Below are positions 52,901 to 62,302 of a stretch of 64,000 bases of DNA, in pieces (the stretch's first letter is position 1; each line of letters starts with the position of its first letter). A model generated the notes under the pieces. It did not search any database, was not told the origin of the DNA, and saw only the letters and a program-made list of their open reading frames with translations. The stretch is from Glaucostegus cemiculus (taxonomy: Eukaryota). The stretch covers positions 1,798,001 to 1,862,000 of the forward strand of contig CDPCPM010000377.1 in NCBI GenBank assembly GCA_976551045.1, read 5' to 3'. Both the position numbers and the translations under genes were made by a program.

Positions 52901-55900
52901 GGTCAGTCACCTGGTAAATCCTGAGGTCAGCTCCGCTGGAGGGGCAGTACCGTGGGTACACCAACACAGGAGCTGGGAGCAGTAGGCCATTCAGCCCCTC
53001 AACCTTGTTCCCCATTCAATGATCATGGCTGATCTGACTGCAACTTCAACTCACCATCCCACCTTTCACTCTCTTGCTTATCAAGTATCTCGCTCTGCCT
53101 TACAAACACTCTGCCTCCACCTCCCTTTGAAGAAGAGAGTTCCAGAGGTTCATCACACTCAGAAAATATTCAGTTCATCTCTGTCGTAAATTGATGGCCT
53201 TTTATCATTAAACAATGACCCAGTTCTAGATTCCCCCACAATGGTTATCCTCTCCACACTCACCCTGTCAATCCCACTCCGATGTCACCTTCTAAATTCC
53301 AACACTTACAAGCACCCTGTCCAACCTTCCCTCATAAGGAAATGCCCCCAGACCAGGAAACCTTCTCTGATTGGCTCCCAATGTATTTACATCCTTTCTT
53401 AGATAAGGAGGCCTATCCAGTACACAGAACGCCTGCTGTGGTCTCACCACTGCTCTCTGTGACTGAAGCCTAACATATTCAATCCCCCAGCAATAAGCTT
53501 GGAACGACGACTGCTCTGCCCAGGACCGCAAGAAATTGCAGGGAATTGTGAACACAGCCCAGTCCATCACAAAAAACAGCCTCCCCTCCATCTACACCTC
53601 GCTGCCTCAGGAAAGCAGTCAACATAATCAAGGACCCCCCCCACCCTGGACATTCTCTCTTCTCCAATTGGTATTGGTATGATACAAAAGCTTGAAAACA
53701 TGTACCACCAGGTTCAAGGACAGCTTCTAGTCCATTGTTATAAGACTATTGAACAGACCTCTTGTACGATAAAGATGGACTCATAAGCTCCCTACTCTAC
53801 TTTGTCGTGACCCTTGCACCTTATTGTCAGCCTACACTGCACTTTCTCTGTAACTGTAACACTGTATTTTCCTTTTTTTTCTTTTGTACTACCCTGATGT
53901 ACTTATGTTTGGAATGATCTGTCTGGATGGCATGCAATTAAAGTTTTTCACATCTCAGTACATGTGACAATAATAAACTGATTCCAATTAAATAACGACA
54001 TCCTGTTAATTTTCCCCAATCACTCACTGTACCTGCACATTCACCTCTTGTGAATGATGCACTGGGAGACCAAGGTCCCTGTGTGACATACCATTCATTA
54101 CATCTCGTCAACCAGCAAATGACACATCGCATTCATACCCCCTTCCTGACTGTCCAGCCAGTCAATCCTCCATCCACACATCACAGGACGCCTGATTCCA
54201 CCGGATTTTATTGACCAGAATAACCTCTCATGTGGCAAATGATCTCTGGGAATGGAAGTAGAGTTTCCCCCACCTGTTCCCCTAAATCCATCAGCAGGTT
54301 CCAGTAATTCCCAATTCCCAACGGATATCATCATCAGTCTGCAAACTACAACCCACAGGAACTGACACTGGGACAGACACACACACACACGGTGTGTACA
54401 GGGTCTGACACTGGGACACACACACAACACAGGGTGTGTAGGGACCGACACCGAGGTACACACACACAGGGTATACGGGATCTGACACTGGGACACACAC
54501 AGTTGGGATGTACCATGTCTGACACTGAGACACACACAAACAAAACACAGGGTATGTAGGTCTGACACCCAGGGCACACAGACAAGGGGACACACACACG
54601 GGGTGTACAGGGTCCAACAACCCTCAGACTCGAGGTCTGTGCCCCTGGAACCGACAGCACCCCACACTCCCTCAGAAGGCAGGGCAGGGCAGCTGTGGAT
54701 GGGACCCGTCCTGTGAAGTGCCCAGACATGTGGGTGGGTCATCACCTCCACCACCTCCCCCCACCAACTCACAGTGGTGAAATCCTCAGCTGTGCACTCG
54801 TCATTGCGGTACTTGCAGTCGAGCAGCATGTCGGACATGTCGTGACCCGCCCGGTCAAAGACCTCAGTCATGTCGTAGGTCTTGCTGGGAAAGAAGCTGG
54901 AAAAGTCGGGATCCTGCCCGATGGACTGCAGGAAGGCAGGGTAGTCGGACTGCCCGACTCCCAGCAGGGAGCCCAGCCAGTACACGTCGTTCTTCTCTAT
55001 GCGGGACTTGCGGAAGCTGTTCTGGTTACAGAGGGTGATAGCAGGGAAGACCATGCTAGAGCTATCCATCTCGTCCAGCGTGGTGACATGGTGGTACTGG
55101 GTGTAGTAGTCCACTCGGTCAGCCACCTGGTACAGGAAGGTGGCCAGGGACAGCAGAAAGGCAAGCAGCCACAGCAGTCGGCGCAGGGTGACACCACCCG
55201 GCAGGAAGATGTGGTTCAGGCCGTGCAGACTGCTGCTTTCGGCAAAGACGGTCAGGTCTGAGGGCTTCCTGCCTGCCTCCGGCAGCTCCATCTCCAGTCT
55301 GCAACCACTCACCTCCTTCCCTGATTACAGCAGAGCAGCAGGGACGTGTCTTATCCCAGAATCACTGACAGCAGCAGGGGGAGGGGGGGCAGAGCACAGC
55401 CCACTGGGAGAGGGAGGGCGCACCGCCTGGGCTCGAGTTACATAGAGCTAACAGCTTTCACTGAGGGAGGGAGTGAGGAGGGGTCAGAGAGAGGGAAGCA
55501 GGGGGCAGTCGGGGAGGTCAAAGAGGGGGGTCAGGGGTGTGTGGAGGTGAGGGGTGTCAGAGGGGTGAGGGGTGTCAGTGGTGGTGGGGGTCAGAGGAGG
55601 GGTGTCCGGGGGGGGGGGGAGAAATGTCCGGTTGGGGGGAATGTCCAGGGAGGGGGGGGCCAGAGGGGAAGGGTAGTGTCCCGGGGGTGGGATTCCCAGA
55701 GGGGGGCCATGGGGGGGGGAGCAGCAGCAGTCGAAGAGGGATAGAGCAGGAGCGGAGGGGGACGAGGGGGGGGTAACCAGAGAAAGAGGGACCAAAGGGA
55801 CAAGCTGTGTGTGGGGAAAGTCTGAAATAAATATCTCTCATCTGTATTCACCAAAGAGAAAAACACTGAAGTTGCAAACTTCAGGGATATTCTAGAGATA

Positions 55901-61900: not shown

Positions 61901-62302
61901 CGGGGCCTCGGCCAGCGCCGGCCGGGTGATCTCATGCCGCTTGTTGAGCAGCGCCAGCAGCTCGCCGGCGTGGAACAGGTCGTTCTGGGTGATCTGCGAG
62001 AAGCGGAACTCGTTGAGGTTGCAGATGGTGACGGCGGGGAAGGTGAGGTTGGCGGCCGACACCTCGTCCAGCCGGGTGACGTGCGGGTACTCCAGGTAGT
62101 AGGCCACCCGCTCCAGGCACAGCAGCGCCAGCAGGCTGAAGCAGGCGAGGAAGGAGGCGGCCCACAGCAGGCGGCGGAGGCCGGCCGGCCCGTCCCCGCA
62201 GATGTGGCTGATGCCGTGCAGCGTCGAGCGGTTGGCGAACGACTCCAGGGCGGCGGGGGGAGCGGCCCCGGCGCCGCCCTCCGAGCCCTTCCTGCCGTCC
62301 AT
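37802..62302 (-). CDS. asic1c: Acid-sensing ion channel gene (asic1c/ASIC3 type), isoform a, 516 aa: complement(join(37802..37906,38400..38471,39636..39715,41324..41415,41760..41913,43428..43484,44990..45140,46631..46758,47559..47709,61742..62302))
   Basis: Complete DEG/ENaC architecture: STLHG, TM1, [21 protein letters not shown], Cys-rich thumb, [20 protein letters not shown]-terminus EEFAC. All introns are GT-AG with consistent phases. The family call is secure; the paralogue name rests on recalled similarity. Confidence 0.9.
38400..38471 (-). CDS. asic1c: ASIC exon 9
   Basis: [24 protein letters not shown]; ttcag| and |gtaact. Confidence 0.88.
38495..39150. repeat. G-rich ~40-50-bp minisatellite in ASIC intron 8
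   Basis: gagtcacactgccggagggacccagggggtcagggcggggct repeated with variable G tracts. Confidence 0.88.
39636..39715 (-). CDS. asic1c: ASIC exon 8 (TM2, GAS belt)
   Basis: [27 protein letters not shown]; donor |gtaagg. Confidence 0.93.
40339..40913 (-). mobile_element. 5'-truncated Tx1/L1-like 3' fragment with 7-bp TSD
   Basis: Minus-strand [10 protein letters not shown]...[12 protein letters not shown] (ORF2 C-terminus), AATAAA and poly(A); flanked by CCACAGA at 40332-40338 and 40914-40920. Confidence 0.75.
41324..41415 (-). CDS. asic1c: ASIC exon 7
   Basis: [30 protein letters not shown]. Confidence 0.93.
41760..41913 (-). CDS. asic1c: ASIC exon 6
   Basis: [52 protein letters not shown]. 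Confidence 0.93.
43428..43484 (-). CDS. asic1c: ASIC exon 5 (57 nt)
   Basis: [19 protein letters not shown]; ccag| and |gtgagt. Confidence 0.9.
   Translation of the reverse strand, partial: VTRTSALPNSTRTVLTQL
44990..45140 (-). CDS. asic1c: ASIC exon 4
   Basis: [50 protein letters not shown]. Confidence 0.93.
45200..45960 (+). mobile_element. Old degenerate CR1 fragment
   Basis: gatttcagccaggcttttgac (DFSxAFD), aagtttgcagataa (KFAD), cagttctgg motifs. Confidence 0.6.
46200..46510. repeat. ~30-bp G/T-rich minisatellite
   Basis: gtgtgctggggggatggtccaggtgtggg units. Confidence 0.8.
46631..46758 (-). CDS. asic1c: ASIC exon 3
   Basis: [43 protein letters not shown]. Confidence 0.92.
47559..47709 (-). 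CDS. asic1c: ASIC common exon 2
   Basis: [50 protein letters not shown]; cag| and |gtaggt. Confidence 0.93.
49580..50960 (-). mobile_element. CR1 LINE RT and 3' UTR fragment
   Basis: 152-aa frame [18 protein letters not shown]...[11 protein letters not shown]; agaacatagaac tail. Confidence 0.9.
51430..52260. mobile_element. CR1 3' fragments (+ 51430-51790; - 51890-52260)
   Basis: [13 protein letters not shown]...WNELP; ggcccttcagccc 3' UTR. Confidence 0.78.
53490..53985 (+). mobile_element. Rex1/Babar-like LINE 3' fragment
   Basis: Same 3' coding and UTR sequence as 7565-8020. Confidence 0.72.
54355..54615. repeat. Degenerate minisatellite downstream of exon b
   Basis: gggtctgacactgggacacacacac units. 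Confidence 0.75.
54773..55291 (-). CDS. ASIC alternative first coding exon b (mammalian ASIC3-like, 173 aa; gives a 502-aa isoform)
   Basis: [29 protein letters not shown]...[26 protein letters not shown]...[10 protein letters not shown]...YWLGSLLG...[15 protein letters not shown]...EDFTT; donor |gtgagt, phase 0, the same phase as exon a. Confidence 0.9.
55880..57660 (+). mobile_element. Decayed CR1 ORF2, interrupted by a short inverted-repeat element at about 56050-56260
   Basis: [31 protein letters not shown] motifs. Confidence 0.85.
58490..58745. repeat. 44-bp minisatellite, about 5-6 copies
   Basis: ggtctgtcactgtataacaccggggtac.gtaccggtggggaca. Confidence 0.85.
59800..61727. repeat. 1.9-kb compound G-rich tandem array
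   Basis: Blocks of ggggaaggggtgcaggggggatgc (24-25 bp), 30-bp variants and gaggaagcaggggaaggg units. Confidence 0.93.
61742..62302 (-). CDS. asic1c: ASIC alternative first coding exon a (ASIC1a/asic1c-like, 187 aa)
   Basis: GCCATGG Kozak context; [13 protein letters not shown]...[53 protein letters not shown]...FYNRTGH...NFST; donor |gtgagt, phase 0. Confidence 0.93.

Follow-up and report, generated by a model that had tools for sequence, protein, structure and literature searches.

Mammalian ASIC3 has one N-terminal exon. ASIC1a and ASIC1b, and likewise ASIC2a and ASIC2b, are made from alternative first exons according to the sections of the Concise Guide 2023/24 available to us (PMC11339754), which name no first-exon variants for ASIC3. 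Mammalian ASIC3 also bears a type I PDZ tail, VTRL (PMC3562204, in excerpt), and bird ASIC3 has been verified by synteny, as stated in the part of PMC6679542 at hand. In zebrafish, zasic1.3 (asic1c) is termed a paralogue of zasic1.1 in the excerpt of PMC8388743, and asic1c is placed among non-orthologous forms in that of PMC9608236. A statement that asic1c is ASIC3 was not found in the literature searched, and primary ASIC papers outside it may bear on novelty; the available sections of PMC9949801, PMC10725132, PMC6790391 and PMC5966886 do not address ASIC3 orthology in fish.

The stretch analyzed here, a 64-kb window of Glaucostegus cemiculus DNA, carries an ASIC gene on its minus strand, on which all exons below are located. 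The preliminary description had reported two intact, divergent first coding exons ending in phase 0 and a single set of common exons, and this anatomy was borne out. Exon a (61742..62302; 561 nt, 187 codons), of the ASIC3a or asic1c-a type in the exon-a trees, encodes an N-terminus with the HG motif, TM1, the post-TM1 His and the finger, and is covered by a CpG island (o/e 1.0, GC 0.73 across 61742-63000). Exon b (54773..55291; 519 nt, 173 codons), which the exon-b tree assigns to the mammalian-ASIC3 type (ASIC3b), lies about 6.5 kb downstream and has no CpG island (o/e 0.47); it contains an ATG of its own, which an in-frame stop precedes by 12 codons, the HG motif, TM1, a His-His pair after TM1 and a short finger. 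Each exon is open, starts with an ATG in good Kozak context and ends in phase 0 before GTGAGT. They are 38% identical to each other, and both match positions 1-170 of the Pfam ASC model (E 4e-30 for exon a and 1e-28 for exon b). As in ASIC1a/1b and ASIC2a/2b, two first exons encode the first third of the subunit and would join common exons, and as in ASIC1 and ASIC2, for which the order is seen in the fused models P0048 and P0063, exon a is upstream of exon b.

Exon assembly placed the nine common exons at 47559..47709 (exon 2, with the acceptor shared by exons a and b), 46631..46758 (exon 3, acidic-pocket loop), 44990..45140 (exon 4, thumb cysteines), 43428..43484 (exon 5), 41760..41913 (exon 6), 41324..41415 (exon 7, start of TM2), 39636..39715 (exon 8, TM2 with the GAS selectivity filter), 38400..38471 (exon 9, basic juxtamembrane tail) and 37802..37906, the last coding exon. 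They have AG/GT ends and consistent phases, sum to 990 nt and are open to a TGA, giving predicted isoforms of 516 aa from the exon a start and 502 aa from the exon b start. When both first exons and the common part were used in tblastn searches, neither a third first exon nor a second set of common exons was found in the window. The features of an ASIC (DEG/ENaC) subunit are present, namely the ASC domain, two TM helices, the HG motif and the GAS filter, and the HG motif, post-TM1 His, E79/E80, E238/E239, D346 and GAS are intact in both predicted isoforms, which should both be putative proton-gated Na+ channel subunits.

The resemblance of exon a to zebrafish asic1c and ASIC1a, noted earlier, holds at 56% identity to Danio asic1c and 53% to ASIC1a, and exon a is 65% identical to ostrich ASIC3-a. 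Exon b had been described as ASIC3-like, including its short finger. It is 55% identical to rat (P0183) and elephant (P0184) ASIC3, with which it shares the His-His pair, and 47% identical to bird ASIC1b; for rat ASIC3 exon 1 the score is 499 against exon b and 316 against exon a. The gene also has common-exon ancestry with mammalian ASIC3. At 57 residues the finger of exon b is indeed short, close to the 58 of rat and elephant ASIC3 and below the 65 of a-type exons. Bird ASIC1b also has a short one (52), so that a short finger marks b-type exons and not ASIC3 alone.

To place the gene, phylogenies were built from the first exons, the common exons and a concatenation of exon a, exon b and core; the trees are unrooted, have no ASIC4 outgroup and, for ASIC2b, draw on one partial sequence at most. 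The concatenated tree separated ASIC1, ASIC2 and lampreys at 100/99 from a side made up of the window, 16 rows of the asic1c/ASIC3 type and two mammalian ASIC3; this ASIC3 side takes in teleost asic1c, bird, reptile and amphibian ASIC3 and mammalian ASIC3, which attaches among amniotes. The common-exon tree gave the same split at 79/94 on an unstarred branch, with separate, true ASIC1 and ASIC2 in sharks and rays. Exon a grouped with asic1c-a and bird and reptile ASIC3-a at 90/97 in a 62-row tree and 96/96 in a 45-row tree. The latter consists of the 62-row set plus seven non-mammalian ASIC1b-like rows, minus partial ASIC2b, most a rows and several b-group rows (X. laevis 1C, Pseudophryne, Rissa 1b, Lamprotornis 1b and the Hemicordylus partial b). 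In this tree exon b joined the b exons of fish, frogs, birds, lepidosaurs and mammals (81/77), the mammalian ones nested among those of amniotes (99/97), and ASIC1b stood apart as a clade of its own (100/99), whereas the 62-row tree had weakly placed ASIC1b within the b group (44/51). The separate phylogenies proposed earlier agree with ASIC3 for exon a and the common exons, and for exon b in the best tree, but a grouping with ASIC1b was not rejected on exon b alone. Mammalian sampling is thin, because mammalian ASIC3 was reached only with a lizard exon-b region as query (two mammals among 26 matches); none was among the 44 matches to exon b in a search against longer proteins. Pigeon P0101, named ASIC1, combines an ASIC3-type exon a and core with an ASIC1 tail and is probably a chimeric gene model.

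Isoforms with exon a and exon b on identical cores (0/271 differences) were found among same-species database isoforms of Chiloscyllium, Elgaria and Oryzias. The shark, lizard and medaka pairs indicate that the window represents the usual non-mammalian state and not a rare relic. In Acipenser the a and b cores differ at 9/271 sites, and the two records are probably two duplicate loci. Database models that begin with a complete exon b exist for five cartilaginous fishes (P0004-P0008) and for many bony vertebrates. One clade unites the a exons of ASIC1, ASIC2 and the window gene (98/99 in the 62-row tree, 100/100 in the 45-row tree), indicating that the a/b duplication predates ASIC1, ASIC2 and ASIC3 and that ASIC1b is a paralogue of exon b. 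No mammalian exon a was present among the best 120 of 300 matches, and exon a was, judging from these sequences, probably lost in mammals. Of the earlier proposal that the locus keeps an ancestral two-exon state, with mammalian ASIC3 as its b and fish asic1c as its a isoform, the a/b assignment held on three trees, but asic1c itself carries both exons: exon a of zebrafish asic1c (zASIC1.3, P0142) is orthologous to that of the window, and the form sampled from the database is, by its sequence, ASIC3a, whereas teleost 'ASIC 1C' loci also hold exon b isoforms (e.g. medaka P0025 and flounder P0015). The NCBI 'ASIC3' models of birds, reptiles and frogs and the 'ASIC 1C-like' models of sharks and rays are the same gene. 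Both isoforms exist as such automated models (Chiloscyllium X1/X2, Elgaria X3/X2), under inconsistent names (1-like, 1C-like, 2-like, 3-like) and without evolutionary interpretation.

The last coding exon provided a character independent of the trees. Frame comparison showed that the window tail, read in frame 0, ends in ...FAC and not in the VTRL of mammalian ASIC3 and many teleost isoforms, while its +1 frame is homologous to the tail that ends in VTRL in bony-vertebrate asic1c/ASIC3 (62% over 24 aa), with neither a VTRL motif nor a stop in that frame. In an overlap test, the ASIC3-type VTRL tail corresponded to the +1 frame of the ancestral last exon with 0/26 conflicts. True pairs gave 0-1 conflicts, far from the 11-13 of ASIC1 and ASIC2 control tails; these controls were slightly under their shuffle means of 16 (5, 0 and 2 of 300 shuffles reached such low counts), as homology between the exons would lead one to expect. 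A VTxL tail occurred in 43/135 asic1c/ASIC3-type records, solely from bony vertebrates, and in 0/35 ASIC1, ASIC2 or lamprey records. The intron at 38399-37907 was searched for a mini-exon that would shift into the VTRL frame, and none was found. Coding in two frames, the last exon offers a clear example of overprinting, with conservation extending from bichir to lizards and birds.

The three trees and this shared dual-frame tail support the earlier identification of the gene as an ASIC3 orthologue, and three other readings were weighed against it. The reviews cited above (PMC8388743 and PMC9608236, as far as their excerpts go) imply that this is an additional ASIC1 paralogue ('ASIC1.3') with an ASIC1b-type exon b, ASIC3 being a separate tetrapod or mammalian gene. 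The identity of exon a to ASIC1a is in line with this, as are the non-significant AU tests of exon b alone with ASIC1b (p-AU 0.09 and 0.15). However, grouping the common exons of the window clade with ASIC1 was rejected (p-AU 0.005), the concatenated split is strong, rays and the chimaera have an ASIC1 besides, which forms a separate clade in the common-exon and concatenated trees, and the overprinted VTxL is common to teleost asic1c and mammalian ASIC3 yet absent from 32/32 ASIC1 and ASIC2 records, which makes an ASIC1 paralogue highly improbable. A first-exon duplication confined to one lineage or to ASIC3, or an origin of mammalian ASIC3 from a fast-diverged exon a, could be suspected because the long mammalian ASIC3 branch (0.45-0.66 in the 45-row and concatenated trees) can distort placement. 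Both versions are already largely refuted and seem extremely improbable, since the a exons of three genes form one clade without any b exon and rat ASIC3 exon 1 scores far better against exon b.

A further reading, which we regard as very unlikely, accepts the orthology but takes exon b to be silent or only a partial internal cassette, with exon a spliced to an in-frame acceptor at 55126 to double the finger region. Such a pyrimidine-rich, acceptor-like site does lie within exon b, database models of lizard ASIC3 (P0009, P0010) and of bird and mammal ASIC1 (e.g. P0053, P0054) join exon a to the corresponding position, and exon b is without a CpG island. The pyrimidine tract may, however, just reflect Leu and Phe codons of TM1, and the ATG, HG motif and TM1 upstream of it are conserved from sharks to mammals, in addition to the full b-start models mentioned above. 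We consider it very likely that the locus, two-start model included, is the cartilaginous-fish ASIC3 orthologue and that this gene is also the one known as asic1c in teleosts and as ASIC3 in birds, reptiles and amphibians.

For this ASIC3 gene, the likeliest arrangement has two promoters, one for exon a in the CpG island and one for exon b with its own ATG, so that a transcript would begin with one first exon or the other, each presumably spliced in phase 0 onto exon 2 in Glaucostegus. ASIC3a and ASIC3b would differ in the N-terminus, TM1, the post-TM1 proton-sensing segment and the finger, as do ASIC1a/1b and ASIC2a/2b; by analogy, the a form may be central and the b form sensory. The a/b pair would have been inherited from the ASIC1/2/3 ancestor, and mammalian ASIC3, with its single first exon instead of the two in the window, would descend from ASIC3b. 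This descent would explain the ASIC1b likeness of the N-terminal third of ASIC3. A partial zebra-finch ASIC3 model fails to map back onto the human locus, as stated in the excerpt of PMC6679542, a failure that fits a b-only mammalian ASIC3 and that we infer to be linked to exon a.

The mammalian ASIC3 branch is strongly accelerated. At the position of rat ASIC3 E435, an acidic TM2 residue with a role as a Ca2+ site, the residue check of exon 7 found Gly in the window, Danio, lizard and bird ASIC1, as opposed to Glu in rat and Asp in elephant, and D346, kept in the window, is Ser in rat ASIC3. We lean towards a model in which jawed-vertebrate ASIC3 carried the pre-duplication a/b pair and the mammalian channel is doubly derived, with a b-only head and an overprinted +1 tail of bony-vertebrate origin that replaced the ancestral, type II-like PDZ motif ...FAC by type I VTRL, the loss of exon a having freed the shared exons for fast change and mammal-specific features. 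If so, zebrafish asic1c could serve for genetic work on ASIC3, and four head/tail combinations would occur naturally among birds, lizards and fish. The ASIC3 orthology of the locus itself corrects the ASIC family tree on which pain biology relies: fish do possess ASIC3, under the wrong name asic1c, and the acid sensor of mammalian pain represents the b form of a gene that formerly had two isoforms. Which ASIC3 properties stem from exon b, from mammalian changes in the common exons or from the overprinted PDZ tail is now testable.

In human, the order of the locus is ABCB8-ASIC3-CDK5-SLC4A2. CDK5 had no match within the window, the upstream flank lying beyond it. The downstream neighbour in the window is a UBX+LRR gene, with which a cluster search returned only generic LRR clusters; this neighbour and the missing CDK5 match count against ASIC3 orthology. 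In its favour, if indirectly, one lizard gene model joins an exon-b orthologue to CDK5.

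The preliminary description placed two intact first coding exons upstream of a single set of nine common exons at one ASIC locus, and re-examination confirmed this arrangement together with all of its coordinates. Exon a (62302–61742, minus strand, 187 codons) and exon b (55291–54773, minus strand, 173 codons) each carry an open frame that closes in phase 0 ahead of a GTGAGT donor. In the nine common exons (47709 to 37802, minus strand, 990 nt in total) the ends are canonical and the phases agree, and joining them to either first exon yields a subunit without interruption, 516 residues long for isoform a and 502 for isoform b. 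No further ASIC exon set was found in the 64-kb window. The two first exons share 38% identity, and CpG o/e is 1.0 at exon a, which has a CpG island, versus 0.47 at exon b, which has none. An in-frame stop lies 12 codons upstream of the exon b ATG, as in a first exon. By analogy with ASIC1a/1b and ASIC2a/2b, whose alternative forms diverge over the initial third of the subunit according to the accessible part of PMC11339754, alternative promoters would yield two proton-gated subunits unlike in that region. A CpG-rich 31-nt unit is repeated eleven times in tandem (62341–62683, minus strand, 93% matches); the array ends approximately 40 nt short of the exon a start codon and may lie within its 5′ UTR or promoter. 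Approximately 1.9 kb of G/C-skewed minisatellites (59850–61726) directly follow the exon a donor.

Among named records, Pristis pectinata came nearest, at 95% for exon a and 98% for the common part, which marks the source as a ray-like cartilaginous fish. Among the matches listed for exon a (at least 120 of 300), bird, turtle and squamate "ASIC3" showed approximately 58–66% identity, teleost asic1c 54–60% and ASIC1a approximately 53%, in agreement with the likeness to asic1c and ASIC1a claimed beforehand. The exon b search recovered 44 proteins among 1813 candidates, mainly from sharks, rays, sturgeon, bichir, teleosts and frogs and labelled "ASIC 1C", "1C-like" or "ASIC3", and the lizard exon-b region as query recovered squamate, tuatara and waterfowl ASIC3 along with rat and elephant ASIC3 (26 of 61 candidates). 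In Chiloscyllium, Elgaria and Oryzias, a-start and b-start models share the same 271-residue core with zero differences, and the Acipenser pair shows 9 differences in this core. Because a- and b-start models of one species have identical cores, we conclude that the two-exon state is common outside mammals and already stands, without comment, in automated annotations.

The frog records retrieved (P0019–P0046) all begin with exon b, and the caecilian record P0132 begins with exon a; the frog pattern may reflect a second, independent loss of exon a or a sampling limit of the match lists. The pigeon record P0101, named ASIC1, joins an ASIC3-type exon a and core to an ASIC1-type tail and is probably a chimeric gene model. 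Within exon b, after TM1, an in-frame acceptor-like site lies at 55126 (minus strand). Lizard ASIC3 and bird and mammalian ASIC1 database models splice exon a into the equivalent position, giving subunits of approximately 640 aa with a doubled finger region, which would be either a real minor isoform or a prediction artefact.

All trees were unrooted and built without ASIC4. The common-exon tree, built from 40 rows, placed the window together with 26 asic1c/ASIC3-type rows and 2 mammalian ASIC3 on one side (branch supports 79/94), and the grouping that would have assigned the locus to ASIC1 was rejected when forced (p-AU 0.005). In the first-exon tree, which had 62 rows, one clade (98/99) held the a exon of the window gene together with those of ASIC1, ASIC2 and lampreys, and inside this clade window exon a joined asic1c-a and bird/reptile ASIC3-a (90/97); the placement of ASIC1b among the b exons was unsettled, and monophyly of the b group was not rejected (p 0.40). 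A 45-row first-exon tree, with seven non-mammalian ASIC1b-like rows added and several named rows dropped, gave three groups: a exons (100/100), ASIC1b (100/99) and a b group (81/77) uniting window exon b with fish, frogs, bird, lepidosaurs and mammals, the mammalian b exons being nested within amniotes (99/97). On exon b alone, a grouping with ASIC1b was still not rejected (p 0.09 and p 0.15). When ASIC1b was cloned, its N-terminus was reportedly noted to resemble ASIC3. Concatenation of a, b and core into one alignment (29 rows over 632 columns, with some rows joining two related species) separated the window, asic1c, tetrapod ASIC3 and mammalian ASIC3 from ASIC1, ASIC2 and lampreys with 100/99. 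These sequence comparisons support, with refinements, the earlier interpretation of the locus as the ASIC3 orthologue in a two-exon state: the orthology holds on the concatenated tree and the common exons, while exon b by itself is not separated from ASIC1b by AU test.

The last exon offers a link of a different kind. Its frame 0 ends in ...FAC, as in 8 of 8 cartilaginous-fish records of the channel gene and in sturgeon, pufferfish, caecilian, frog, turtle, lizard and bird isoforms. The +1 frame of this ancestral ...FAC exon (37908–37837, minus strand) is what bony vertebrates read as their VTRL-ending ASIC3 tail, which makes the last exon dual-coding; in the window it matches the tail of VTRL-ending teleost asic1c isoforms at 62% over 24 residues, and VTRL is given as distinctive of ASIC3 in the accessible part of PMC3562204. 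We asked whether one DNA string could encode both tails, counting conflicts against 300 shuffles. The Elgaria, Phyllobates, Acipenser and teleost pairs gave 0 of 26 conflicts, a bird and a lizard pair gave 1, and turtle against elephant gave 4; shuffles averaged approximately 15, with 0 of 300 as low as observed, and ASIC1/ASIC2 tails gave 11–13. Among 170 named records, VTxL tails occurred in 43 of 135 asic1c/ASIC3-type proteins versus 0 of 35 others. Judged from these sequences, mammalian ASIC3 has as its tail an overprinted frame that fish asic1c shares, a link between the two genes that does not depend on the trees. The window's own +1 frame holds neither the VTRL motif nor a stop, and a search of the last intron revealed no frame-shifting exon. 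The overprint most likely originated in bony vertebrates, its loss in cartilaginous fish being the less probable alternative.

The HG motif, E79/E80, the acidic-pocket residues and the GAS filter are retained in both isoforms, and the post-TM1 histidine, single in isoform a, is doubled in isoform b, as in rat ASIC3. The window channel lacks rat ASIC3 E435 and the VTRL tail, so that mammalian ASIC3-like behaviour should not be assumed for it. The long mammalian ASIC3 branch (0.55 in the common-exon tree) suggests that much of this behaviour is recent. Since the exon a matches listed included no mammalian a-type record and mammalian ASIC3 is known with a single N-terminal exon, we infer that exon a was lost in mammals.

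The a/b first-exon architecture is of a known kind, at a new place, and bird and reptile loci are already named ASIC3 by NCBI. Two reviews, in their accessible portions, still regard asic1c as a paralogue or variant of ASIC1 (PMC8388743; PMC9608236). In the literature covered, mostly outside subscription journals, we found no paper stating that asic1c is ASIC3 or describing ASIC3a/b first exons or a dual-frame tail; neither the asic1c/ASIC3 synthesis nor the overprinted tail seems to have been described so far.

CDK5, proposed beforehand as a synteny marker, had no match within the 64-kb window, and the upstream flank lies beyond it. Indirect synteny support came from one lizard model joining the exon-b orthologue to CDK5 and from two database listings, seen as listing entries, with ABC-transporter and ASC domains together. 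As a third indirect line, zebra-finch ASIC3 has been accepted on synteny, its supplementary row giving no neighbour names (accessible part of PMC6679542). The channel gene's tail-to-tail neighbour, the sole other gene recognised in the window, is a multi-exon plus-strand gene (approximately 1400–15200) encoding a UBX domain and, after it, leucine-rich repeats. Between the two genes (approximately 26200–35300), degenerate endonuclease- and reverse-transcriptase-like ORFs, recognised by eye, have a retroelement-like appearance, and the channel gene introns contain CR1-like LINE fragments.
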